A stretch of DNA of 64,000 nt, taken from positions 2,224 to 66,223 of the forward strand of contig URBX01000003.1 in the NCBI GenBank assembly GCA_900546175.1, given 5' to 3'. Made by a program: the position numbers and the translations under genes. Below are positions 5,404 to 18,568 of the stretch, piece after piece. This DNA comes from an uncultured Eggerthella sp. (GTDB taxonomy: Bacteria; Actinomycetota; Coriobacteriia; Coriobacteriales; Eggerthellaceae). Numbering within the stretch: the first letter of the stretch is position 1; the number at the start of each line of letters is the position of its first letter. The notes under the pieces are model-generated. The model saw only the letters and a program-made list of their open reading frames with translations, ran no database searches and had not been told where the DNA came from.

Positions 5404-6066
5404 ATGAGCAAGCAAAACCATAAGAGGCCTGGATGCGTCGATGTATTTAGGTCCTATCTTGTCAACGATGCCTCGTTCGCGGGCGATCTTGAGATTCCAG
5501 TTATCCACCCGACAACAGTCGTGCCTAAAAAAATCGCTCCTTTCTCTCAAGCGATTTCAGCAAAAAACAGAGATTTGTGGGTGCATTTCTACGAGGACGA
5601 TGTGAAGTTCGAAAGGGTTTGGAACAACCCGAAGCGTTATCTGGAAATACTCTCTGGATTCGAAGGCGTTATTGCACCTGACTTCAGCGTATACAGAGAC
5701 ATGCCTCTCGTGATGCAATTCTGGAACATCTACAGATCTCGCGCAATAGCCCACGCGCTCCAATCCAGAGGCGTCACTGTCATCCCGAACCTGCGTTTTG
5801 GAGATAGGCGAACCTGGGAGGCTTGCTGCCTCGGAATCAGCAAGCGCTCGGTCATCGCGGTTGGAAGCTATGGGAATATCAAGAATGTGGAGGATCGAAG
5901 GCACTTCACTGATGGCCTCGACTATGTTTCAAACCGGATTAAACCATGCGCAATTGTTTTCTATGGCTCCACCCCCGATTCGATTCTAAGGAAGCTCCAA
6001 GGTGCCGGTATAGCGACTATTTCGTTTGAGAGCACGTTTTCCCAATCACGCAAGAGGAGCCGCTAA
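5404..6066 (+). CDS. Hypothetical protein, resembles the DUF4417 family (recalled from memory, unverified)
   Basis: 220 aa; motifs WVHFYEDDVKFERVWNNP and APDFSVYRDMP; RBS GGAAGGAGGTG upstream; its stop TAA overlaps the next start (TAATG). Confidence 0.5.
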   Translation: MSKQNHKRPGCVDVFRSYLVNDASFAGDLEIPVIHPTTVVPKKIAPFSQAISAKNRDLWVHFYEDDVKFERVWNNPKRYLEILSGFEGVIAPDFSVYRDMPLVMQFWNIYRSRAIAHALQSRGVTVIPNLRFGDRRTWEACCLGISKRSVIAVGSYGNIKNVEDRRHFTDGLDYVSNRIKPCAIVFYGSTPDSILRKLQGAGIATISFESTFSQSRKRSR

Positions 6067-6560
6067 TGGGCGGCGGATATCATGGCGGCTTTGGCGCAAC
6101 CTTGGGAAGTGCTTTTGCCGGAGATGCAAGCTTTATGGGCAGCTCAGAACGGTTTCTGAAAAACATCAGAAACCGCAATGATGTCGACCCTGGCGGAAAA
6201 TTCGACATCATCGCTCATGGAACAGCCCACACTATCGAAATCGAACACAATGGGCAAAAGATTCAGGTAAATTCGCGCACGGCGGCAAATATGATCAAGA
6301 GGCTTTCAGGCTACAACGGCCAAAGCATCAGGCTTCTGTCTTGCAGCACGGGATCAGACAGCGCAGGCTTCGCACAGAATCTCGCCAATAAGCTCGGCGT
6401 AACAGTGTATGCACCTAGCGATAAACTATGGGCATATGGGAATGGGCGCCATGTTATCGCCCCAACCAGTTTAACAAAAGACCGCTTTGGAAATCCACGG
6501 CCAGATCTCAGTAGACCCGGAAGATTTGTAAAATACACCCCAGGAGGTAACAAACGATGA
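6066..6560 (+). CDS. Hypothetical protein with a Gly-rich N-terminus and a candidate His-Gly...Cys catalytic dyad (caspase-fold/clan-CD-like arrangement is an inference)
   Basis: FDIIAHGTAH (hydrophobic strand + HG) and, about 50 aa later, SIRLLSCSTG (hydrophobic strand + Cys); start/stop coupled to both neighbours. Confidence 0.5.
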   Translation: MGGGYHGGFGATLGSAFAGDASFMGSSERFLKNIRNRNDVDPGGKFDIIAHGTAHTIEIEHNGQKIQVNSRTAANMIKRLSGYNGQSIRLLSCSTGSDSAGFAQNLANKLGVTVYAPSDKLWAYGNGRHVIAPTSLTKDRFGNPRPDLSRPGRFVKYTPGGNKR

Positions 6561-6904
6561 ACTGTCCTGAATGCAACGCTTCGACCATTTCTAAAATCGA
6601 GGGATCGAGCCTCGTTATCGAATGCGCAGAGTGCGGTTGGTCAATCGCAACCAGTCACATCGATCCGATCTACGAGGACGAGACGATTTACCTCGTTCAT
6701 GTAGGATTCAACAAGAACCCAAGCAAAGAGGCCCTCAAGGCTGTAGCGCGTATCACTGGAGGAAACTTCATCTCCGCAAAGCGCCTTCTCGAAACTCCAG
6801 GCTCAAAGCTAATCGAAGGAAAGGCTCCTGTAGTCAAGAAGTGCCTTGAAGACCTTACGGCCGCTGGCGTCAGTTTTGAGGTGAATCCCGAATTCCTCTT
6901 TTAG
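6557..6904 (+). CDS. Zn-ribbon protein with a ribosomal L7/L12 C-terminal-domain-like module
   Basis: N-terminal CPEC...CAEC zinc ribbon; the C-terminus LKAVARITGGNFISAKRLLETPGSKLIEGKAPVVKKCLEDLTAAGVSFEV aligns residue-by-residue in pattern with the L7/L12 CTD ([53 protein letters not shown]); its ATG overlaps the previous stop (ATGA). Confidence 0.6.
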   Translation: MNCPECNASTISKIEGSSLVIECAECGWSIATSHIDPIYEDETIYLVHVGFNKNPSKEALKAVARITGGNFISAKRLLETPGSKLIEGKAPVVKKCLEDLTAAGVSFEVNPEFLF

Positions 6905-7160: not shown

Positions 7161-7753
7161 TGGGAATAATACACCATAAAAAGTGTATTAGTTATCTCCA
7201 GTGAATTGAGGTTTTCTAGAGCGTGATTTAGTTCATCCAGCTTGCGTTAAGCAGGTACAATCCGAAGGAAAACTGCAGTTCAGATACATAAAATGCTAGG
7301 TAGTTTCATATTTCTACCTAGCCTTTGTTTTGCTCCGTAACCGTATCAAATTCTACATGTTGGTTCTATACGGCTACGAATCTGGTAAGCGTTTCTGGCT
7401 TGGGGCACCTGCACGGAATCACGCAAATGGAGTACGTGCTCTGCTCGTGCTCTACGCTCGTTTCGCTGGATTTCCGTGGCATGGGGCCTGGAGAACGGTT
7501 GAATCTAAAGATGACATTCGGCGCTTGTACGTCGCTTGAGCGGATCCTGATTGATGCCGATTGGATACTGCTTACGCTGAGCGACAAGTATGTGACGTTC
7601 CACAACTGCTCATGCCTTGTAGGCGGCAACGAAACGACGTACTCCAGAAGCAGGATCTCGAGCAATTGCATGAGGATTGACATCGAGGGACAGGCGGGTT
7701 ATCTGACTGCGAAGTGGTATGAAAACGCCCCTCCCGATTGGGAGGGACATGGG

Positions 7754-8704
7754 CTAGAACTCGATGTCAATCTTAAAGAACTGACGTTGCTCGTTTTTGA
7801 ATTCTCCCTTGATGTCTACGTTAGCTTCGGCATCAAGCTTTTCGAGTACAGCGTTCACCTTTGCTGCTGCGTTTGCGGTCATGCTGGCATTTGAGCTGTT
7901 CTTGATCACCCTGTGATACTCATGAATCTTGTTGTCGCTCTCTTCGTCACACCTTGCACGTACGAGCTGCGTGATCTCTGCGCTTTCCGCATACCACTTC
8001 AGCTTCGGTTCGACAGGCGTACTACTGCCCTTGAACGACTGGGAAACTACAGCCTTCTTCTCAACGACCTTTAGGGCCTCGGCACTCATCTCTCCAGTCT
8101 CGGAGCAGTTGATGTCTACCTCCTTGGCTTCCGCCTTGGCCTTACGGGCGAGTCCGCCTTTGCCGACCTTAACCTTCTTTGCATATTCATAGGTCTCGAT
8201 GGTGCACTTCTTAGCGCCGAGCGAGTAAGCAATCTCGAACAACTCTGCGCGTCTTTCATCTTGCATGGTGTCAAAGAACTTGTCTATGTTGACGTAGCGC
8301 GTTCCGAACTTGTCTACATAGTAAATCGACCAGCTTTCGGCATGAGGGTAGAACTGAATGCCGCTTCGTTCCACTTCTCTTTCGTAGAGGTGGAGAACGG
8401 TTACGCCAGCGGCCCTGCTAATCCAGCCGATAGCTCCCTCCATAACATCAACGCTTTCCCTTGAGCCGTTGTCTACAATGGTGATCAGCTTGGGCATTTG
8501 GAAGTTAGGGGCTTCAAAATCTGTGCGGCTGATCGGGTTGTAGTACCTCTTCTTAGCCTTCATTAGCTCGCCGGATGCGCCTTCCGCGACGTTGTGCGCG
8601 GTGTTGGAAGCCAACTCAACGGCGCGACCGCTAATCTCTTTCGTTTTTTCAGCGGCTCTTGAGGCGGACTTCCTGATAATATTGCTGGGATTCTCTTTCG
8701 CCAT
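7754..8704 (-). CDS. Hypothetical protein (316 aa), no recognisable domain
   Basis: Long ORF with lower GC than its flanks, opposite strand to its neighbours, Lys/Glu-rich central region. Confidence 0.5.
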   Translation of the reverse strand: MAKENPSNIIRKSASRAAEKTKEISGRAVELASNTAHNVAEGASGELMKAKKRYYNPISRTDFEAPNFQMPKLITIVDNGSRESVDVMEGAIGWISRAAGVTVLHLYEREVERSGIQFYPHAESWSIYYVDKFGTRYVNIDKFFDTMQDERRAELFEIAYSLGAKKCTIETYEYAKKVKVGKGGLARKAKAEAKEVDINCSETGEMSAEALKVVEKKAVVSQSFKGSSTPVEPKLKWYAESAEITQLVRARCDEESDNKIHEYHRVIKNSSNASMTANAAAKVNAVLEKLDAEANVDIKGEFKNEQRQFFKIDIEF

Positions 8705-9186
8705 CTCTCCCCCTTCCTTGGAACGATGCTAATTATATTTCCGATTTGTTCCTGATAGGGGATGTATTTTTCGCGTGGCAACTTCGTAGCAAATGAGAAG
8801 ACCCCAGCGGCTGGCGTGCTGCTGAGGTCTATAAATCACTACTTCAGGATGACTTCGGCTTCCTGAAAGAGACGCTCGAAGTGCTCGCGGGTTCTGGTTG
8901 ATGCATGCGGTGATATTGCGTCTTCGGGGTCGTTGTCCATGGGCTCGAGGAAGTCAGACTGATTGCCCGCATGGCGAGGACTCGGCTTCACGCCCACCGC
9001 CCCGCTAATCCGACGTGTCAGGCGGACCTGCTCCCCCTCCGCTGTCCAATACGCGGGACACGCAAACCACCTGCAACTATTTACGATACAAATGGGCGTA
9101 TATTAGCTGATGGCTAAGGACTTTTCCTGCTCGATGATATACTTTCATTTGTATTGCATTCCGCAAACGAAACGTAAGGAATAGCG

Positions 9187-9396
9187 ATGAGCTACAAGGA
9201 ACTGATCAAGAGCGGCGCCGACGCGACCGACATCCAGCAATATCTGGTTGATGGCGAGATGACCGCCATCACCATCCGCATCCCGAAGAATCTTCGGGAT
9301 AGCGCTAAAGAAGCCGCAGAGCTTCGTGGAATGAGCTTCAGCACGTTGATCCGCAAGTGCATGATTGACGAGCTTTCGAATATCGAGAGGGGCTAG
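9187..9396 (+). CDS. Small ribbon-helix-helix (CopG/Arc-like) protein upstream of hsdM
   Basis: ITIRIPKNLRDSAKEAAELRGMSFSTLIRKCMIDEL: beta-strand plus two helices typical of RHH DNA-binding proteins; its stop is 1 nt before the hsdM ATG. Confidence 0.5.
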   Translation: MSYKELIKSGADATDIQQYLVDGEMTAITIRIPKNLRDSAKEAAELRGMSFSTLIRKCMIDELSNIERG

Positions 9397-9397
9397 C

Positions 9398-10978
9398 ATG
9401 GCTGACACCACTAAGGAACAGCAGCGCGCCGAGCTGCACAAAACAATCTGGTCCATCGCCGACGACTTGCGCGGCAGCGTGGACGGTTGGGACTTCAAGC
9501 AATACATCCTATGCACGCTCTTCTACCGCTTCGTGAGCGAGAACCTTTGCGCCTACCTTGCCGAGCAGGAAGGTGACCCCTCCTTCGACTACGCTTCCAT
9601 GCCTGACGACCAAGCCGAGTGGGGTCGCGAGGAGACCGTCAAGGAGAAAGGTTTCTTCATCCTTCCCAGCGAGCTATTCTGCAACATCCTCAAGCGCGTG
9701 GACAAGGACGGCATGCGCCTGACCGAGGATGGGCAGGACCTCAACGAGCTGCTGACCCAGGTATTTAAGAATATCGAGGGTTCTGCTGTTGGCACGGAGT
9801 CTGAGGGCGACCTCAAGGGCCTGTTCGACGACATGGACGTCAACAGCGCCAAGCTAGGCAACTCGGTCATCGAGCGCAACAAGAAGCTGGTGAAGCTCAT
9901 CTCCAAGATCGGCTCGCTGGACTTCGGCGGTGCCTTCCAGGACAACTCCATCGACGCCTTCGGCGACGCCTACGAGTTCCTCATGACCATGTACGCCTCC
10001 AACGCCGGCAAGTCCGGTGGCGAGTTCTTCACCCCGCAGGAGGTGGGCGAGCTTTTGGCGCGTATTGCCATCGGCGATCGCAAGAGCGTGAACAAGGTAT
10101 ACGACCCTTGCTGCGGCAGCGGTGGCCTGCTGTTGAAGTTTGCAAAGATCCTGGGCAAGGAAAACGTGCGCGGCGGATACTTTGGCCAGGAGATCAACCT
10201 GACCACCTACAACCTTGCCCGCATCAATATGTTCCTGCACGACGTGAACTTCGATAAGTTCGATATTGCGTTGGGCGATACACTCAAGGAGCCCGCCCAT
10301 TGGGACGATGAGCCATTTGATGCCATTGTTTCGAATCCGCCCTACTCCATCAAGTGGGAAGGCAAGGGCAACCCCCTCAACATCAACGACGCTCGCTTCA
10401 GTCCCGCAGGAGTTTTGGCGCCCGCCAGCAAGGCGGACCTAGCCTTCACCATGCACATGCTGAGCTGGCTTAGCACTGAGGGCACAGCCGCCATCGTCGA
10501 GTTCCCCGGCGTGCTCTACCGTGGAGGTGCCGAGGGTAAGATCCGCGATTATATGGTGCGCAACAACTTTGTCGAGGCGGTCATCCAGCTTCCGGCTGAC
10601 CTGTTCTTTGGTACCACCATTGCTACTTGCATCATCGTGCTTAAGAAGAACAAGAACGCAAGCAATGTGCTGTTCATCGACGCCAGCGAGCAGTTCGAGC
10701 GCCGCGACTCCAAGAACAAGCTGATGCCCGCTAACATCGACCGCATCATGGACGCAATCGCTGCGCGCGCAGAGGAGGATCACTTCTCCAAGCTGGTTTC
10801 CAATGACGAGATCTTGACAAACGACGCCAACCTGTCCGTTAGCTCTTACGTCGAGAAGAAGGACGAACGCGAGGAAATCGATATCGCCGAGCTCAATGCA
10901 GAAATCAAACGCATCGTAGCGCGTGAGCAGGAACTGCGCGAAAAAATTGACGCCATCGTGGCCAACTTGGAAGGCTAG
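9398..10978 (+). CDS. hsdM: Type I restriction-modification system, DNA methyltransferase subunit M
   Basis: N6-adenine MTase motif I DPCCGSGGLL and motif IV NPPYSIKW; HsdM N-terminal domain; start chosen at MADTTKEQQ with RBS GAGAGGGG. Confidence 0.92.
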   Translation: MADTTKEQQRAELHKTIWSIADDLRGSVDGWDFKQYILCTLFYRFVSENLCAYLAEQEGDPSFDYASMPDDQAEWGREETVKEKGFFILPSELFCNILKRVDKDGMRLTEDGQDLNELLTQVFKNIEGSAVGTESEGDLKGLFDDMDVNSAKLGNSVIERNKKLVKLISKIGSLDFGGAFQDNSIDAFGDAYEFLMTMYASNAGKSGGEFFTPQEVGELLARIAIGDRKSVNKVYDPCCGSGGLLLKFAKILGKENVRGGYFGQEINLTTYNLARINMFLHDVNFDKFDIALGDTLKEPAHWDDEPFDAIVSNPPYSIKWEGKGNPLNINDARFSPAGVLAPASKADLAFTMHMLSWLSTEGTAAIVEFPGVLYRGGAEGKIRDYMVRNNFVEAVIQLPADLFFGTTIATCIIVLKKNKNASNVLFIDASEQFERRDSKNKLMPANIDRIMDAIAARAEEDHFSKLVSNDEILTNDANLSVSSYVEKKDEREEIDIAELNAEIKRIVAREQELREKIDAIVANLEG

Positions 10979-10983
10979 TCAAA

Positions 10984-11796
10984 ATGGGAAATAAAGAAAC
11001 GCAGGCAGCTCACGAGCTAGCTATCCTCAACCATCTTAAACAGCTTTTATGCGAAGGATACAATCTGAAGCATTATTTTGCCTGCTCTCAAGATGATGTT
11101 GAATCCATCAAGGCGGCTCTTCTTTCGGCTGAACAGAATCAAGAAACCACTTTTCCTGATTTCTCTGCTGAGGCTTGCTGCATTGAGCTATTTGCTATTT
11201 CGTCTTCTGAGCAAGGAAAGAAATGCGGACCGCTTCAATCAAAGCAAGATGGCGACCTTCAGAGGACAATTGCCAATGATGATGAAAGGACGGCATTGGC
11301 CAAAAACGGCCAGACTCGCGTTTACACCCAAGTTCATCCCCAGCATAGCTACGAACATCTTTCCCGATCTCTGAGGGAAAACTTCGGGAGTCATCTGAAT
11401 AGCTTACGTCGATCTAAAAATGAATATCTGACAAGGATTTTCGTAGTCGAATATCCAGAAACCGACCTTCACTGCTTTTTTAGTCCAGATTCTGATTTGA
11501 GGTACGAAGGTCTCTGTATGGGTGATTTTACTGCCGAGTATTCTAATGGAAGAGATAACGGATTATATCGCTTGAGCAGGGATAAAGAGAATCTTAACTG
11601 GCTTGGTGAATACGCTGATGAGGTTGATTACGTAATTTTCCACGGAGTGCATTCCGTGGAAGTGATAAACCTGCACAACGTGGGACAAATAACAGGATTC
11701 CTTCCATGGCGCATGCGTTCTTATCCGGCGATGGCTATAACATATGCAACCTCAATCTTTCTAGGGTCGTTCGAGAAAGGCTCAAATAATGAATAG
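10984..11796 (+). CDS. Unknown 270-aa protein embedded between hsdM and hsdS; candidate RM-associated accessory/defence gene
   Basis: Starts 5 nt after the hsdM stop and its stop overlaps the hsdS ATG (ATGAATAG); visibly lower GC than the flanking hsd genes; no Walker, HNH or other clear motif; weak R-x5-H (RENFGSH) noted. Confidence 0.6.
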   Translation: MGNKETQAAHELAILNHLKQLLCEGYNLKHYFACSQDDVESIKAALLSAEQNQETTFPDFSAEACCIELFAISSSEQGKKCGPLQSKQDGDLQRTIANDDERTALAKNGQTRVYTQVHPQHSYEHLSRSLRENFGSHLNSLRRSKNEYLTRIFVVEYPETDLHCFFSPDSDLRYEGLCMGDFTAEYSNGRDNGLYRLSRDKENLNWLGEYADEVDYVIFHGVHSVEVINLHNVGQITGFLPWRMRSYPAMAITYATSIFLGSFEKGSNNE

Positions 11797-12937
11797 CATT
11801 GAAGGACTAATCGAACGGCTCTGTCCTGATGGGGTGGAATATAAGCCCCTAAGATCTATTGCCAAGATAGTTGGAGGTAAGGACTACAAACACCTTGCTG
11901 CAGGAAGTGTGCCTGTATATGGAAGCGGTGGCGTGATGACCTATGTCGATACTGCCGCATACGATAAACCTTCTGTCTTGCTTCCGCGTAAGGGGTCAAT
12001 TTCAAACGTGTTCTATGTTGATGGGCCGTTTTGGAATGTTGATACGGTTTTTTATACAGAAATTGACGAGTCACAAATAATGCCAAGATTCTTCTTTCAC
12101 GTGATTCTTGCCGAGCATATTGAGAAGTTAAACACATCAAACGCAGCGCGCCCTGCTTTGACGAGAACAGTGTTAGATAAGATTCAAATCCCTGTTCCTC
12201 CTCTAGAAGTCCAAGAAGAGATAGTGCGAATTCTCGATACCTTTTCAGAGCTAGAAGCAGAGCTAGAAGCAGAGCTAGAAGCAGAGCTAGAGGCGCGCAA
12301 GGCGCAGTATGCCTACTACCGTAGCAATATCCTCGGCAGGTGCGCCGACAAGGTTGCTCTTGGAAGTATTTGCAAATCGGTTTGCTCTGGTGGGACACCC
12401 AACAAAAAGAATCCTGAATACTACGAGAACGCTACTATTCCTTGGCTTCGAACGCAGCAGGTTGCGTTCAATGAGATATTCGAGGTCGACTCCTTCATCT
12501 CTGAAGCCGGATTGAAGGGCTCTTCTGCAAAGTGGATTCCTGCTAATTGCGTGATTGTCGCAATCTCTGGAGCAACCGCTGGGCGATGCGCGATCAATAA
12601 GATTCCGCTAACGACAAACCAACACTGTCTGAACATGGAAATTGATGAAGCTGTTGCAGACTACAGGTATGTTTACCACTGCGTCTGCAATCAAAACGAG
12701 GAGCTTCTTTCAAAGAAAGAGGGTGCTCGCGGAGATTTGAATGCTTCGCGAATCAAGAGTCTCGAAATTCCTCTGCCTTCTCTGGAAGAGCAGCGTTCCA
12801 TTGTGGAGATACTCGACAATTTCGACAAACTTTGTGGAGATATCACGCAGGGTCTTCCCGCGGAAATCGAGGCGCGCCGCAAGCAGTATGCCTACTATCG
12901 CGACAAGCTCCTGACCTTCAAGGAGAAGAAAGCATGA
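11789..12937 (+). CDS. hsdS: Type I restriction-modification system, specificity subunit S
   Basis: Two target-recognition domains separated by a conserved central region; two repeated conserved segments (ELEARKAQYAYYRSNIL and EIEARRKQYAYYRDKLL) typical of the HsdS internal duplication. Confidence 0.9.
   Translation: MNSIEGLIERLCPDGVEYKPLRSIAKIVGGKDYKHLAAGSVPVYGSGGVMTYVDTAAYDKPSVLLPRKGSISNVFYVDGPFWNVDTVFYTEIDESQIMPRFFFHVILAEHIEKLNTSNAARPALTRTVLDKIQIPVPPLEVQEEIVRILDTFSELEAELEAELEAELEARKAQYAYYRSNILGRCADKVALGSICKSVCSGGTPNKKNPEYYENATIPWLRTQQVAFNEIFEVDSFISEAGLKGSSAKWIPANCVIVAISGATAGRCAINKIPLTTNQHCLNMEIDEAVADYRYVYHCVCNQNEELLSKKEGARGDLNASRIKSLEIPLPSLEEQRSIVEILDNFDKLCGDITQGLPAEIEARRKQYAYYRDKLLTFKEKKA
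12248..12295 (+). repeat. In-frame 12-bp tandem repeat (GAGCTAGAAGCA x3 plus GAGCTAGAGGCG) encoding ELEA x4 in the hsdS central conserved region
   Basis: Read directly from the sequence: SELEAELEAELEAELEARKAQYAYY. Confidence 0.85.
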
Positions 12938-15900
12938 GCGAATTCGAATACGGACATACGAAGGTTCCAGAGCCGCAGAATACCGCCTCGTTGGCGGATG
13001 ATTTGCCTAGCAACGTCGACTTTGACGTCATGGCTTTTGGCGGTCAGGCGACAGTCTGTTCCGCGCTGCCGAAGCAGCAGAAACGCTCAACATCGTATCA
13101 GTCAGAAGCCCAACTGGAGGACGCTTTCATAAAGCAGCTCTGCCGTCAGGGCTACGAGAGACTCGTCATCTCCAGCGAAGGTGACCTTATTGCCAACCTG
13201 CGTAGGCAGCTCGAGGCCTTGAACCGCATCTCCTTCTCCGACAAGGAGTGGTCCCGCCTGTTCAAGGGATGGATCGCCGCGGACAACGACGGCATCGTCG
13301 AGAAGACCCGCCGCATCCAGCGCGACCACGTCTACGCCCTGCAGATGGATGACGGATCCGTGCGCAACGTCTCCCTCATCGACAAGCGCAACGTGCACAA
13401 CAACCGCATGCAGGTGATGAACCAGTACACCCAGGAAGGGACCTACGAGAACCGCTACGACGTGACGGTACTGGTGAACGGCCTGCCGCTCGTGCACATC
13501 GAGCTCAAGCGCCGCGGCGTTGCCATCCAGGAGGCCTTCAACCAGATCGAGCGCTACCAGCGCGACAGCTTCTGGTCCGGCTGCGGCCTGTACGAGTACG
13601 TGCAGATCTTCGTTATCTCCAACGGAACCCACACCAAGTACTACTCCAACACCACGCGCTTTTCCGCCATCGGGGAGCGAGCCGGCAAGAAGACCCGCGG
13701 CAAGAAGACTTCCAACAGCTTCAAGTTCACCAGCTGGTGGGCCGATGCTGACAATATGCCCATCTTCGACCTGGTGCCCTTCACCGCCACCTTCTTCGCC
13801 AAGCACGCGCTGCTGAACATCCTCACGAAGTACTGCGTCTTCGACGTGGACGAGAAGCTACTAGTCATGCGCCCGTACCAGATCGTGGCCACCGAGCGCA
13901 TATTGAACCGCATCCTCATCAGCGAAAACGACAAGTCCATGCTGGGCACCCTGCGTGCCGGCGGCTACATCTGGCACAGCACGGGATCGGGAAAGACGCT
14001 CACCAGCTTCAAGACCGCACAGCTCGCCAGCCAGATGGCAGGCGTGGACAAGGTCATGTTCGTGGTGGACCGCAAGGACCTGGACTACCAGACCATGCGC
14101 GAGTACGACCGCTTCGAAAAGGGTGCTGTGGACGGCAGCGAGTCCACGGCCGTACTGTCCAGGCAGCTTGCCGACCCGGACTGCCGCATCCTGGTGACCA
14201 CCATCCAGAAGCTCTCCTGCTTCATCAAGAAGAACAATAAGCACGACGTCTATGCGCAGCACTGCGTCATCATCTTCGACGAGTGCCACCGTAGCCAGTT
14301 TGGCGACATGCACGTGGCCATAACCAGGCACTTCAAGAACTACCACCTGTTCGGCTTCACCGGCACGCCGATCTTTGCGGAAAACGCCAGCAGCGGCAAA
14401 GTGGCAAACTTGAGAACCACCGAGCAGGCCTTCGGCGACAAGCTGCACACCTACACCATCGTGGACGCCATACGCGACGAAAACGTGCTGCCGTTCAGGG
14501 TGGACTACATCAAGACCATCCGGGAGCGCGACCAGTACGAAGACCAGAAGGTCTACGACATCTACCGCGAGGGCGCCTACAAGGCAGCTGCTCGCGTGGA
14601 CCTGATTACCAACTACATCCTTGACCACTACGCTCAGAAGACCAAGCGCACGAGCAGCTACGACTTCAAGGGCCAGCGCGTCATGGGCTTCAACTCCATT
14701 TTCGCCACAGCCTCCATCGACATGGCGAAGGTGTACTATTCTGCCTTCAAGCGCATCCAGGCCGAGCGCGCCGGCGAGAAGCTGAAGGTTGCCCTCATCT
14801 ACAGCTTCGGCCCCAACGAGTCCGACGATGGCTGCGGCCTTCCTGATGAGAGCTTCGACGTGGCCAGCCTGGACACCCCGAGCCGCGACTTCCTGGAGGC
14901 CGCCATCGGCGACTACAACGCCATGTTCGCAACCAGTTTCGACACGAGCTCGCAGGGCTTTCAGAACTACTACAAGGACCTGTCGGACCGCATGAAGAAG
15001 CGCCAGGTGGATTTGACTATCGTGGTCAACATGTTCCTCACCGGCTTCGACGCTACCACCTTGAACACGCTCTGGGTGGACAAGGACCTCAAAGACCATG
15101 GCCTCATCCAGGCCTTCAGCCGTACCAACCGCATCCTCAACTCCGTAAAGACCTACGGAAACATCGTGTGCTTCCGCAACCTGGAGGACCGCGTGAGCCA
15201 CGCCATCAGCCTGTTCGGCGACAAGGAGGCGGGCGGCGTGGTGCTGCTCAAGCCCTATGCTGAGTACCTTGCCGAGTACAACGACCGCCTGGACCAGCTG
15301 CGAGAGCAGTTCCCGCTTGAGGCGATTCTTTCCGGTGCCGTCATCATGGGCGAGGAACAGCAGAAGGCGTTCATCCGGCTGTTCGGCGTGATCTTGCGCC
15401 TGCGCAACATCCTCACCGCCTTCGACGACTTTGCCGAGGACGATTCTCTGAGCCCGCGCGACGAGCAGGACTATCGCAGCGTCTACACCGATTTGTACCA
15501 GAAATGGCGCGGGGAGAAGGAGGACGCCACCATCATCAACGACGATCTCGTCTTCGAGATCGAGCTTCTGAAGCAGGTCGACATCAACATCGACTACATC
15601 TTGATGCTGGTGCAGAAGTACCACGACTCCAACTGCACCGACAAGGTAATCATTGGTGACATCGAACGCGCCATCTCCGCCAGCTACGAGCTGCGCAACA
15701 AGCGCGACCTCATCCATGCGTTCATGGACAGCCTTGTCTCCAGCAACGACGTCGCAGCCGACTGGGAGAAGTACGTGGCAGAAGCCAAGGAGCGCGAGCT
15801 CTCTGCGATCATCGCCGAGGAGGCCTTGGACGAGGCTGCTACACGCGAGCTGATGGCCAACGCCTTCGCTGACGGAGGAGTTCCCGAGAGCGGCACCGAG

Positions 15901-16026
15901 GTGGCAAACCTGATGACCAAGAAGCCGAGCCGATTCGCTCCGGCAAACGCATACGCAGACATGAAGGCCCGAGTGCTTGAACGCTTGAAAGGGTTCTTTG
16001 AGCGATTTAGTGGATTAGGGAAATAG
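12934..16026 (+). CDS. hsdR: Type I restriction-modification system, restriction endonuclease subunit R
   Basis: SF2 helicase motifs HSTGSGKTLTSF (Walker A) and IIFDECHRSQ (DEAH box); about 1030 aa; its ATG overlaps the hsdS stop (ATGA). Confidence 0.92.
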   Translation: MSEFEYGHTKVPEPQNTASLADDLPSNVDFDVMAFGGQATVCSALPKQQKRSTSYQSEAQLEDAFIKQLCRQGYERLVISSEGDLIANLRRQLEALNRISFSDKEWSRLFKGWIAADNDGIVEKTRRIQRDHVYALQMDDGSVRNVSLIDKRNVHNNRMQVMNQYTQEGTYENRYDVTVLVNGLPLVHIELKRRGVAIQEAFNQIERYQRDSFWSGCGLYEYVQIFVISNGTHTKYYSNTTRFSAIGERAGKKTRGKKTSNSFKFTSWWADADNMPIFDLVPFTATFFAKHALLNILTKYCVFDVDEKLLVMRPYQIVATERILNRILISENDKSMLGTLRAGGYIWHSTGSGKTLTSFKTAQLASQMAGVDKVMFVVDRKDLDYQTMREYDRFEKGAVDGSESTAVLSRQLADPDCRILVTTIQKLSCFIKKNNKHDVYAQHCVIIFDECHRSQFGDMHVAITRHFKNYHLFGFTGTPIFAENASSGKVANLRTTEQAFGDKLHTYTIVDAIRDENVLPFRVDYIKTIRERDQYEDQKVYDIYREGAYKAAARVDLITNYILDHYAQKTKRTSSYDFKGQRVMGFNSIFATASIDMAKVYYSAFKRIQAERAGEKLKVALIYSFGPNESDDGCGLPDESFDVASLDTPSRDFLEAAIGDYNAMFATSFDTSSQGFQNYYKDLSDRMKKRQVDLTIVVNMFLTGFDATTLNTLWVDKDLKDHGLIQAFSRTNRILNSVKTYGNIVCFRNLEDRVSHAISLFGDKEAGGVVLLKPYAEYLAEYNDRLDQLREQFPLEAILSGAVIMGEEQQKAFIRLFGVILRLRNILTAFDDFAEDDSLSPRDEQDYRSVYTDLYQKWRGEKEDATIINDDLVFEIELLKQVDINIDYILMLVQKYHDSNCTDKVIIGDIERAISASYELRNKRDLIHAFMDSLVSSNDVAADWEKYVAEAKERELSAIIAEEALDEAATRELMANAFADGGVPESGTEVANLMTKKPSRFAPANAYADMKARVLERLKGFFERFSGLGK

Positions 16027-16035
16027 AGAGCAAGA

Positions 16036-17847
16036 ATGAAAAACTGTTATAGCGTAACCACATATTCAGTCCAGTCCGTCCTGGGCTACATCAACGCCGG
16101 AGACATCGCAATCCCGGAGATCCAGCGTCCGTTCGTCTGGTCGAAGACCCAAGTCCGCGACCTCGTGGACTCCCTTTTCCGCGGATATCCAACCGGCTAC
16201 CTCATTACCTGGAAGAACCCGGACGTCAAGGTCAAGGGCGGTGGAACGGCCGAGGGAAAGAAAGTGCTTATCGACGGCCAGCAGCGTGTGACCGCCATCA
16301 TGGCCGCGCTTGCCGGACAGCAGGTTCTAAACGAGGATTACGAGCTCGGCCCTATCAAAATTGCATTCAACCCCCTCTATGACGGCGAGGACAGCCCGTT
16401 CGAGGTCCTGACTCCGATCATCGAGCGCGACACGAAATGGGTATCCGATATCTCCGAGCTCTTCCAGCCCGGAGCCAGCACGTTCAAGTTCATCACGGAG
16501 TACATCAAGGCCAATGAGGGCTGCGATGCCGACAAGGTCAGCGCGAGCATCGAAGAGCTCACATCCATCGCGATGCGCCAGCTCGGCGTCATCGAGATCG
16601 ACGCATCCTGCACGATTGACGAGGTCACCGACATCTTCATCCGCATCAACTCGAAGGGAGCGGTGCTCTCCCAGGCTGACTTCGCTATGTCCAAGATCGC
16701 CGCAGATGAGGCCCACGGCGGAAACATGCTGCGCAAGGCGATCGACTACTACTGCCACCTGGCGGTAAAGCCGGAATTTTGGTCAACCATCAGCGTGCAG
16801 GACCCCGACTACATGGCGAGCGAGTACGTTGCGAAGACCGAGTGGTTGAAGGACGACAAGGACGATATCTACGACCCCGATTACAACGACGTCCTGCGCG
16901 TCGCCTTTATGTACAAGTTCGGTCGAGGCAAGCTCGCAGACCTCGTCGCACTCCTCTCGGGACGAGACTTCGAGGCCCGCGACTACAAGGCTGAGATCGC
17001 CGACGAATCCTTCGCCAAGCTCCATGACGGCGTCCTGCGCTTCATGGACAAGAACAACTTCCAAGATTTCGTTCTTGCGTTGCGCTCGGCAGGTTTCGTG
17101 AGCCCATCGATCATTTACTCGAAGGGCGCGATTAACTTCGCGTACAACCTCTATCTCACGCTACGCGAGGATCCTTCCATTCCTTCAACCGACGTCAAGC
17201 GCTGGGTGCAGCGCTGGTACGTCATGTCCGTCCTGACGGGTCGCTACTCTGGTTCTTCAGAATCCGTCATGGATCGTGACATCAGGCGCATCTCCGAACA
17301 GGGATTCCTCTCTTTCTACGAGGAAGTTGCCCAGGCACAGCTTTCCGACACTTTCTGGGAGGTCAACCTTCCTCAGGCGCTGAACACCACCAGCACCCGT
17401 ACTGGTGCTTGGCTTGTGTATCTGGCGTCCCAGGTACGATCTGCGAACAATACACTGTTCACGAACGGCGTCAAGGTGAGCGATGTCGTTGCCACCATCG
17501 GCGACATTCATCACATCTTCCCAAAGAACTACCTAAAGAAGGAGCTTGACGCGCAGAAGGGCCTTTACAACCAGGTCGCGAACTACGCTTACCTCGAGAA
17601 GCGCATCAACATCAAAATCGCCGATAGGAGGCCGGGAGACTACTTCACCGAGGCGCTAGATGCCTGCAGCGCAGGTTCTACATACTTCGGCGACATCGCC
17701 AAGGTTGATGATCTGTATGCCAACATGGCCGAAAACTGCATTCCCGAAGATATCTTTGACATGGGAGCCGAGGACTACAGGGAGTTCCTCTCTAAGCGTC
17801 GTCAGCTTATGGCAGCTAAGATCAGGGATTATTTCAAGGGACTGTAG
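16036..17847 (+). CDS. DUF262 (ParB-like nuclease N-terminus) / DUF1524 (HNH-like C-terminus) protein, GmrSD-family Type IV modification-dependent restriction enzyme-like
   Basis: N-terminal IPEIQRPFVW and LIDGQQRVTAI (DGQQR motif of DUF262); C-terminal IGDIHHIFPKNYL (His-Me finger of DUF1524); 10 nt downstream of hsdR. Confidence 0.85.
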   Translation: MKNCYSVTTYSVQSVLGYINAGDIAIPEIQRPFVWSKTQVRDLVDSLFRGYPTGYLITWKNPDVKVKGGGTAEGKKVLIDGQQRVTAIMAALAGQQVLNEDYELGPIKIAFNPLYDGEDSPFEVLTPIIERDTKWVSDISELFQPGASTFKFITEYIKANEGCDADKVSASIEELTSIAMRQLGVIEIDASCTIDEVTDIFIRINSKGAVLSQADFAMSKIAADEAHGGNMLRKAIDYYCHLAVKPEFWSTISVQDPDYMASEYVAKTEWLKDDKDDIYDPDYNDVLRVAFMYKFGRGKLADLVALLSGRDFEARDYKAEIADESFAKLHDGVLRFMDKNNFQDFVLALRSAGFVSPSIIYSKGAINFAYNLYLTLREDPSIPSTDVKRWVQRWYVMSVLTGRYSGSSESVMDRDIRRISEQGFLSFYEEVAQAQLSDTFWEVNLPQALNTTSTRTGAWLVYLASQVRSANNTLFTNGVKVSDVVATIGDIHHIFPKNYLKKELDAQKGLYNQVANYAYLEKRINIKIADRRPGDYFTEALDACSAGSTYFGDIAKVDDLYANMAENCIPEDIFDMGAEDYREFLSKRRQLMAAKIRDYFKGL

Positions 17848-17949
17848 CCTGCTAGGGGAGGGTTTGTGGAGTCAGCTCTACCCCGCCCTCCTTCGGTTTT
17901 ACTTAAAGGCTTAAGCGAATTACAACACCCACAAACCACCCGCTCAAAA

Positions 17950-18568
17950 ACTCATCTTTTGTCACAGGGAAAACGGCCCGTGACAACATTTTGACAACAT
18001 GGATTTTCGCGAATTTTGTTTAACGCAACAGTCGCACAAAAATTGATAGCCGGCTGAGTGAAGCTATCATTTTCACCGTTATTCTGATTCTTCGTTTTTA
18101 TCAAGCGCCAATATTGCTCTAATGTAAATAGCAACAGCCTGTTTTAGACCAACAACTTCCTGAGCCTCGTTAACCTGATGGCCTGAGCCAACACCTTCCG
18201 GCAAAGGACCTAATCCAAATCTTCCCGGACCAAATCCAAGAGCGCCTGGAATATAGCGCGCATGAGTTGCTCCCCCCCATAGCATAGGGCCTTAGCGAAA
18301 CCCCCAGCTCTTCGTTAACAATAGCAGTGAGCAATTCAACCTTTTCGTCCTGAGGATTAACAAAATGAGACTTGCTAGACGATTCGATTTCTACCTCAAA
18401 ATGAGCATTATTAAACGTCCGAAAAACATTTCGCACAACCCATTTCTCTTCAACTACTGAAGGGTATCTAATATTTAAAGTAACTTGAAAGGTGCCTTTG
18501 TCGTAGGAAGCGAAAACGGGAACAGCCGTAGTGTCTCCCAAAAAGTCATCGTGAACCGATATTTCCAA
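17950..18568 (-). pseudogene. M20-family peptidase (dipeptidase) 3' fragment, 5'-truncated and frameshifted at a C7/G7 homopolymer
   Basis: Two adjacent minus-strand ORFs (18170-18568 and 18079-18285) together read ...LRPYAMGG / ATHARYIPGALGFGPG...HQVNEAQEVVGLKQAVAIYIRAILAL (M20 C-terminal H-x-x-NE motif); the frames are joined across the tract tcccccccat at about 18271-18277; only about 200 aa remain where about 450 are expected. Confidence 0.5.

Follow-up and report, generated by a model that had tools for sequence, protein, structure and literature searches.

Gene X and the operon that carries it

A Type I restriction-modification (RM) operon in the genome of an uncultured Eggerthella sp. 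carries an additional gene, here termed X, between hsdM and hsdS. It lies on the + strand at positions 10984-11796 of a 64,000-nucleotide (nt) stretch of contig URBX01000003.1 (positions 2,224 to 66,223; hereafter the window), starts with ATG and encodes a protein of 270 amino acids (aa) that belongs to an unnamed family and, as judged from a structural model, may adopt a restriction-endonuclease-like fold. X is probably an accessory passenger gene rather than a component of the restriction enzyme itself.

The genes on either side of X, all encoded on the + strand, are tightly packed. Upstream, the gene for the Type I methyltransferase subunit, hsdM (9398-10978, 526 aa; Pfam N6_Mtase, E 2.4e-110, together with HsdM_N), ends with a TAG stop codon (10976-10978), which is followed, after a 5-nt gap (TCAAA), by the ATG of X. 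A putative Shine-Dalgarno-like hexamer (GGAAGG, 10969-10974), read from the sequence, lies 9 nt before this ATG, still inside hsdM near its 3' end. Downstream, the TAG stop codon of X (11794-11796) lies beyond the ATG of hsdS (11789-11791), which results in an 8-nt overlap. The hsdS gene (11789-12937, 382 aa; Pfam Methylase_S, E 6.1e-49) comprises two target-recognition domains (TRD1, ~11789-12247; TRD2, ~12296-12937), between which four tandem 12-bp repeats (12248-12295), encoding (ELEA)4, form part of the central conserved region of HsdS. Its stop codon overlaps by 4 nt with the ATG at position 12934 of hsdR (12934-16026), whose product is an EcoR124-type protein of 1030 aa (Pfam HSDR_N, SWI2_SNF2, T1R_D3-like and EcoR124_C). 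HsdR retains its own nuclease motif D...ELK in intact form ('YDVTVLVNGLPLVHIELK', as read from the translation), which rules out that X supplies a missing HsdR nuclease. The first gene of the operon (9187-9396) encodes a 69-aa ribbon-helix-helix (RHH) protein of the DUF6290 / RelB-YlcI-like type (Pfam DUF6290, E 3.4e-07; NCBIfam YlcI_YnfO_N, E 4e-07), and 1 nt separates its end at position 9396 from the hsdM ATG at position 9398. A preliminary description of this region had reported a 270-aa open reading frame 5 nt past the hsdM stop that overlaps the hsdS start, and had regarded RHH-hsdM-X-hsdS-hsdR as one tight unit. Our analysis confirms both the coordinates and the junctions, all of which are compact, with gaps of at most 5 nt or overlaps.

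Translational coupling between hsdM and hsdS is the normal arrangement in such operons, as described for EcoKI. X is inserted in such a way that it takes over this coupling from hsdM and relays it to hsdS via the stop/start overlap, and its product would thus be made together with the methyltransferase core.

An unnamed family and its preferred junction

A word-indexed search with X retrieved 7 clusters only, with identities of 42-94%, and a HMMER search with an alignment of these clusters returned 300 representative clusters at E<=1e-3, including 183 at E<=1e-10. At the clustering threshold used (50% identity), the family thus comprises at least 300 clusters, whose members all have lengths of 240-310 aa and match from end to end. 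The reading frame of X is conserved at full length across relatives down to ~20% identity. Given these 300 homologous clusters and the conservation of the frame, X does not represent a chance open reading frame; it is a genuine, conserved gene and belongs to a family that is sizeable and unnamed. Its members occur predominantly in Clostridia and Coriobacteriia of the gut, are common also in Enterococcus and, wherever a source annotation was found, are listed as 'hypothetical protein'. X itself has no match in Pfam, NCBIfam, PADLOC v2, PHROGs or the sequences of the PDB, the latter searched with the single sequence and two profiles. None of the 5027 models in PADLOC v2 was matched by X or by 20 typical relatives, which likewise reached no NCBIfam model, and none of the 89 family members sampled consistently reaches a Pfam family. 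The view that X is a gene in its own right held up against two other identities that had been considered for it. An N-terminal HsdS fragment is ruled out, as X lacks a Methylase_S match and a phmmer search with the window's HsdS finds the downstream open reading frames, never X; a transposase remnant is ruled out by the lack of a Pfam match.

The genomic context of the family's wider E-H-F type (named after residues 68-70, see below) was analyzed for 24 loci from species-representative genomes, 80 metagenome loci and 4 IMG/VR loci. The loci were retrieved with a tighter alignment subset (A3), because the broad alignment (A2) was too diverse, and Hsd neighbours were recognized by comparison with the Hsd proteins encoded in the window. 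The 24 genome loci stem mostly from Oscillospiraceae, Lachnospiraceae and other Clostridia, with additional representatives in Enterococcus, Faecalibacterium and Angelakisella. In all 7 clusters of close homologues, the gene is flanked by hsdM and hsdS. The gene order hsdM-X-hsdS(-hsdR) recurs in 16/24 genome loci (~67%), and a Type I operon surrounds 76/84 of the metagenome and viral loci (~90%). In 54 of these 76 embedded loci both neighbours are adjacent; in 13, hsdM lies ~1 kb upstream, and the remaining 9 show a contig end or gap on the hsdS side. A survey of homologues in Type I operons, as called for in the preliminary description, thus reveals recurrence at the very same junction. Among 88 distinct X sequences, 68 are followed by hsdS, and in 57 of these 68 cases X overlaps the hsdS start by 4-17 nt (14 nt in 32 and 8 nt in 23 of them). 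The distance to hsdM is at most 6 nt in 54 cases and ~1.05-1.14 kb in 9. The preferred home of the family is the junction just 5' of hsdS in EcoR124-type Type I operons.

When hsdM lies ~1 kb away, the space between it and X holds another passenger gene. At locus L092 (4753-5793), hsdM is followed by a gene for a 346-aa protein that appears RhuM-like by sequence inspection alone, without a profile test, whereas loci L132/133 carry a gene for a YhcG/DUF1016 nuclease between hsdM and the X-family gene. The YhcG/DUF1016 genes of the PD-(D/E)xK type in L128 and L132 are both located at positions 7581-8717, directly past hsdM. Additional cargo is always found on the hsdM/X side, never between X and hsdS. 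In sister operons, the hsdM|X junction itself serves as an insertion slot.

Family members are not confined to RM operons. The 8/24 genome loci without Hsd genes all represent defence or mobile-element settings, with neighbours that include a Phd/PIN pair that precedes the X-family gene and a zeta-toxin-like gene that follows it, two C5 methyltransferases with Vsr, an AAA_23 ATPase, and integrases or serine recombinases. Overall, members stand alone beside Gabija-like, toxin-antitoxin, C5 methyltransferase/Vsr, McrBC, DruA and recombinase genes. In Enterococcus faecium (L134-L137), the X-family gene occurs by itself at a constant chromosomal site beside DUF960/AllH genes (7001-7765 in L134), and its upstream neighbour differs by strain, being an HsdS fragment, DruA, or an SNF2 helicase with McrBC; the site constitutes a defence hotspot of a bacterium that can be cultivated. 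On a Jeotgalibaca plasmid, the X-family gene overlaps the stop codon of a resolvase, and an Enterococcus lactis plasmid carries a frameshifted remnant past hsdR. A succession of DUF2971, 208-aa and X-family genes was found twice, once beside a C5 methyltransferase and Vsr and once beside a Gabija-like OLD-ATPase and UvrD. In these two unrelated Clostridia metagenome-assembled genomes (L022, 5023-7777; L025, 115-2875), the DUF2971 protein (~442 aa), the 208-aa protein, which has no Pfam match, and the X-family protein are encoded by genes with overlapping junctions, and the cassette may constitute a system of its own with an X-family protein as one of its components. A phage origin of X is rejected, with no match in GenBank phages and no viral-contig match for the clade of X; the wider family has 4 matches in IMG/VR, 2 of them in an hsd context. 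X-family genes are hence same-strand genes that are recurrently nested among the core genes of one system and also found in other defence islands, the pattern by which embedded defence genes are recognized.

The close association with hsdS could be taken to mean, as the preliminary description had hinted, that X acts as a guardian of its operon, in a manner similar to PrrC. The protein would then be held inactive by binding to HsdM2S1 and be freed when an anti-restriction protein (Ocr/ArdA/Stp-like) disables the enzyme, so as to cut nucleic acid and abort the infection. We consider this scenario unlikely, although several observations fit it. The coupling of X to both hsdM and hsdS, with an hsdS overlap that is kept family-wide, would suit stoichiometric co-production, and the E-L-F clade of the window's X has been seen only beside hsdS (7/7 distinct sequences). 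However, 10-33% of the family loci have neither Hsd genes nor an obvious antitoxin, which indicates that members are tolerated without an RM partner, and the coupling may reflect only the need to keep hsdS translated after an insertion.

Dispensability and mosaic transfer

The HsdM protein encoded in the window shares 95% identity with its counterpart in Adlercreutzia rubneri, a member of the Coriobacteriia, and related operons reveal how variable the content of the hsdM-hsdS region is. Loci L125-127, whose HsdM is 95% identical to that of the window, show the order RHH-hsdM-hsdS-hsdR, with hsdS located 2 nt past hsdM and without X, beside a ParA/ParB/relaxase module. At 91% HsdM identity, L128/129 display the order hsdM-YhcG-(hsdS fragments), L130 (87%) has hsdM-hsdS-PUA-like-hsdR, and L132/133 (81%) have hsdM-YhcG-X family-hsdS-hsdR. 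Because a sister operon with a 95%-identical HsdM lacks X, the gene is dispensable cargo, and an integral RM subunit is ruled out.

Base composition sets X apart from the backbone of the operon. X has a GC content of 0.438 and a GC content at third codon positions (GC3) of 0.41, compared with 0.570 and 0.79 for hsdM and 0.589 and 0.86 for hsdR; in all 8 loci examined, the GC content of X is below that of hsdM and hsdR. The 5' half of hsdS, which encodes TRD1, shows values (GC 0.439, GC3 0.40) that are equally low, and TRD2 has a GC3 of 0.55. The earlier impression that X has a lower GC content than the flanking hsd genes is thus borne out by computation for hsdM and hsdR but fails for the TRD1 part of hsdS. 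The low-GC unit extends beyond X and includes TRD1. Within the window, the first ~18 kb have a GC content of 0.49-0.59, whereas the rest (18-64 kb; GC 0.43, GC3 0.43) remains steady at 0.41-0.46 over 46 kb and agrees in GC content with the low-GC unit, so that the compositional outlier is the hsdM/hsdR backbone. This pattern suggests a high-GC mobile element in a host of ~43% GC, bearing a low-GC patch of X and TRD1. By themselves, the bulk GC content of 0.43 and the prevalence of the family in Clostridia would point to a Firmicute as the host. No tRNA genes were found in the 64-kb window, and it does not match a known plasmid.

Nucleotide comparisons with a related X-bearing operon, L001, delineate this patch. 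Although the window's hsdR is 91% identical to that of the X-less locus L125 and only 82% identical to that of L001, a 100-nt identity profile shows a block at 10800-12250 (+ strand), comprising the final ~180 nt of hsdM, the X gene and TRD1 as far as the ELEA repeats, that is 94-99% identical to L001, whereas the backbone on either side of it is 70-95% identical. X plus TRD1 is 97% identical across backbones with an identity of 82-88%, and X shows far less synonymous divergence from its L001 counterpart (dS 0.066) than hsdR does (dS 1.04). Identity falls at the ELEA repeats, which form the right-hand edge of the block, and TRD2 is unrelated between the two operons. The preliminary proposal of a separate acquisition is borne out, relative to hsdM and hsdR, by this mosaic block and the X-less sister operon. 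The edges of the block, i.e., the 3' end of hsdM and the central conserved region of hsdS, coincide with the anchors of a TRD1 swap, and ordinary specificity shuffling therefore suffices to explain how X travels. Located between these two anchors, X would be carried along whenever recombination exchanges TRD1, which accounts for the low-GC mosaic block.

Across 125 loci, the identity of X correlates with that of HsdM (Spearman 0.76) and HsdR (0.81) and barely with that of TRD1 (0.23). Moreover, 64 of the 312 pairs of operons whose X genes are at least 95% identical have unrelated TRD1s, which rules out that X is tied to one TRD1. X tracks HsdM and HsdR and hardly TRD1, and it is thus a long-term resident of the operon lineage that is not bound to one specificity. 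The co-variation with HsdM and HsdR would also be expected if X were kept in check by the RM complex, yet plain linkage would give the same result, and the occurrence of the same X (97% nt identity) with backbones 12-18% apart (nt) and with unrelated TRD1s weighs against a PrrC-like role.

The mosaic structure also brings to mind free-standing homing endonuclease genes, with which X shares a fixed-junction polymorphism, co-inherited flanks and a GC content below that of host genes. As a selfish element of this kind, X would cut X-less hsdM|hsdS junctions and be copied in by repair, along with the hsdM 3' end and TRD1. The presence or absence of X among near-identical backbones, its fixed insertion point and its low GC content relative to hsdM and hsdR fit this idea, as do the predicted nuclease-like fold, the proximity of some relatives to resolvases or integrases, and the block itself, which reaches ~180 nt into hsdM, runs through TRD1 and is reminiscent of a co-conversion tract. 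Nevertheless, we regard it as improbable. Ordinary TRD1 swapping accounts for the block even if X has no activity; the way in which X tracks HsdM and HsdR over long distances points to stable residence instead of frequent invasion; X carries no known family signature of homing endonucleases; and the members at unrelated loci share no common target. Still further-reaching, and in our estimation very improbable, is the notion that the X family represents junction-specialized homing nucleases whose activity drives the swapping of specificities among operons, even across phyla, in which case the low-GC X and TRD1 in a high-GC Coriobacteriia-type backbone would be the outcome of one such event.

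Further parts of the operon vary as well. Among otherwise near-identical hsdS genes, the 12-bp ELEA repeat is present in 4 copies in the window and L003, whereas L001/4/5/6 have 3 copies and L002 has 5, and the HsdS proteins of L001-L006 accordingly have lengths of 362, 366 or 370 aa. In EcoR124I/II, a change in the number of TAEL repeats alters the length of the spacer and, hence, the specificity. The ELEA variation resembles this case, and repeat copy number could act as a specificity switch here. The RHH gene lies 5' of hsdM in X-bearing (L001-6) and X-less (L125-127) loci alike and is a candidate controller of the operon. At the other end, starting 9 nt past the hsdR stop codon, a gene for a 603-aa GmrSD/BrxU-like (DUF262) protein (16036-17847, +; Pfam GmrSD_N, E 2.3e-28, and a weak GmrSD_C match; PADLOC HEC-05, E 6.4e-33) probably encodes a Type IV restriction enzyme that would be co-transcribed with the Type I system as a second passenger of the operon. 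At the C-terminus of the protein, DUF1524 is matched only weakly (E 0.005). The space that separates hsdR from the GmrSD-like gene measures 9 nt in the window, whereas it contains a gene for a 412-aa protein in L001-6 (~12990-14228) and for a 306-aa protein in L125/126 (11876-12808), neither of which has a Pfam match. A consensus scan of positions 8700-18300 yielded no promoter-like or terminator-like signals above shuffled expectation. Upstream of the operon, three small genes (5404-6904, +; 220, 164 and 115 aa) are packed so tightly that adjacent ones overlap by either one base or 4 nt, and a gene on the opposite strand (7754-8704, -) encodes a 316-aa protein without a match in Pfam, NCBIfam or PADLOC.

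Predicted fold and possible function

An AlphaFold2 model of X, based on a deep alignment (pLDDT 93.1, pTM 0.89), shows an alpha/beta protein with a long N-terminal helix that contains E11, a hairpin with D59 and E68, two long helices, additional strands and a C-terminal beta-alpha subdomain (~residues 190-257). A Foldseek search with this model against the PDB returned nothing significant and no close solved structure. In the alignment of 89 family members, P58, D59 and E68 are invariant, and E11 (conserved in 94%), F57, F60, H69, F70, G82, S129, H137, F153, Y195, D200 and L204 are nearly so; E/D156 and D/E159 represent further strongly conserved acidic positions. Together, these residues give rise to the family signature E(helix 1)...N-x4-F-P-D-F-x4-G-F-I-E-H-F-x-I-T-S-S...R-K-G-S...Y-R-L-S-R-D-K. 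In the model, the conserved acids are placed as in the PD-(D/E)xK superfamily, with a Glu on helix 1, a Pro-Asp pair entering a strand and a Glu in the next strand, eight residues past the Pro-Asp. The statement in the preliminary description that X has no recognizable catalytic motifs is therefore too strong, since a conserved E...PD...E array is found on a putative restriction-endonuclease-like core.

The weak R-x5-H string (RSLRENFGSH) that had been noted as a hint of HEPN-type RNase activity is, by contrast, rejected. It is indeed present (R131-x5-H137), and H137 is retained in 88/89 members. However, position 131 is an Arg in only 9/89 sequences, compared with a Lys in 50/89 and Glu, Gln, Ile or other residues in the remainder, and the model places the motif in one helix of an alpha/beta fold, not in an all-alpha bundle. 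The odds that X is an RNase of this type are, in our view, vanishingly small.

With moderate confidence, we describe the modeled fold of X as PD-(D/E)xK-like, without filing the protein as a proven member of the superfamily. It resembles the core found in CdiA-CT toxins, XisH, R.BspD6I and YhcG/DUF1016 proteins but fails the canonical-motif and sequence-profile tests. By analogy with other embedded genes, the most likely role of X, to which we give about an even chance, is that of a metal-dependent nuclease, serving as an embedded effector that would give its host a second, independent layer of defence. Riding in a Type I locus, it would then behave as GmrSD/TgvAB, YhcG or RhuM-type genes do. 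Several points weigh against this assignment. The canonical Lys of the (D/E)xK motif is replaced by Phe (F70) in 88/89 members, so that the family does not show the superfamily's catalytic signature D...(D/E)-x-K, although R/K79 and K81 in the following loop might substitute for it. An hhalign comparison of the X family with 56 HsdR N-terminal nuclease domains gave a probability of 0.2% and hence no relation, and there is no PADLOC, PHROG or Pfam model that backs a defence or nuclease assignment for X. The window's own clade (X, P0003 and P0008-P0010) retains almost all conserved polar residues, and X itself keeps E11, P58-D59, E68, H137, Y195 and D200. Nevertheless, this clade has a Leu in place of His69, a residue found in 82/89 aligned members and in 98% of those outside the clade, as well as a shifted Lys81, and judging from these substitutions it may be catalytically altered or inactive. 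Finally, the comparison with L001 gives a dN/dS ratio of 0.41 for X, based on only 28 differences, which is relaxed relative to that of hsdR (0.07).

The same substitutions could mean that X is a degenerate nuclease-fold protein without catalytic activity that modulates Type I assembly, specificity or restriction alleviation. Apart from the family-wide lack of the canonical Lys and the loss of His69 in the window's clade, the fixed position between hsdM and hsdS, together with the coupling, would suit such an accessory role. For Prevotella intermedia 17F, Johnston et al. 2017 (PMC5608340) mention a single gene without an assigned function, perhaps unrelated to X, that separates hsdM from hsdS, and speculate that it affects specificity. 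We nonetheless give this possibility little credence, as an operon with a 95%-identical HsdM does without X, stand-alone members exist, and the strong conservation of E11, D59, E68, E/D156 and D/E159 would be unexpected in a purely structural protein.

If X is indeed a nuclease effector, PrrC and RloC provide the most obvious comparison. Like them, X is an accessory same-strand gene co-expressed in a Type I operon, here a type IC-like one with an EcoR124-type HsdR, and a back-up effector role is possible. The PrrC precedent, together with the presence of CdiA-CT tRNase toxins among the closest small structural neighbours of the model, adds to the case for the guardian scenario considered above. 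PrrC and RloC, however, combine an ABC-ATPase head with a C-terminal anticodon-nuclease domain, whereas X, at 270 aa, has an alpha/beta fold and no P-loop. As already noted in the preliminary description, there is no ABC ATPase head; X lacks a Walker A motif and any AAA/ABC match in Pfam or PADLOC. Furthermore, PrrC lies between hsdS and hsdR and is almost exclusively embedded in Type I loci, whereas X lies between hsdM and hsdS and its family, with 10-33% stand-alone loci, is less strictly bound to them.

A broader framework is provided by 'guilt by embedding' (Payne et al. 2024), an approach that predicted hundreds of defence genes inside Type I loci, in addition to TgvAB and PrrC, for which a defence role has been shown experimentally. 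X shares with these genes (TgvAB, BrxU/GmrSD, HEC/PDC candidates) the same-strand nesting in Type I RM, BREX or Hma operons. It differs from them in that it is unmatched in PADLOC v2 and unusually faithful to the junction directly 5' of hsdS. While the phenomenon of an embedded passenger is known, the unnamed X family and its fidelity to one junction are new.

Genes nested in restriction operons have repeatedly proved to be new immune effectors, as in the case of PrrC, TgvAB, BrxU and the HEC systems. The X family was missed by the models of the published embedding screen and is nameless in every library searched. Its strict placement upstream of hsdS offers a clean test of whether a passenger has a functional link to the methyltransferase core or simply makes use of a co-translated slot that is prone to recombination, and its members in cultivable Enterococcus faecium make such experiments feasible. 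Moreover, X provides a concrete example of an accessory gene that is passed, together with a target-recognition domain, among Type I backbones that have diverged from one another.

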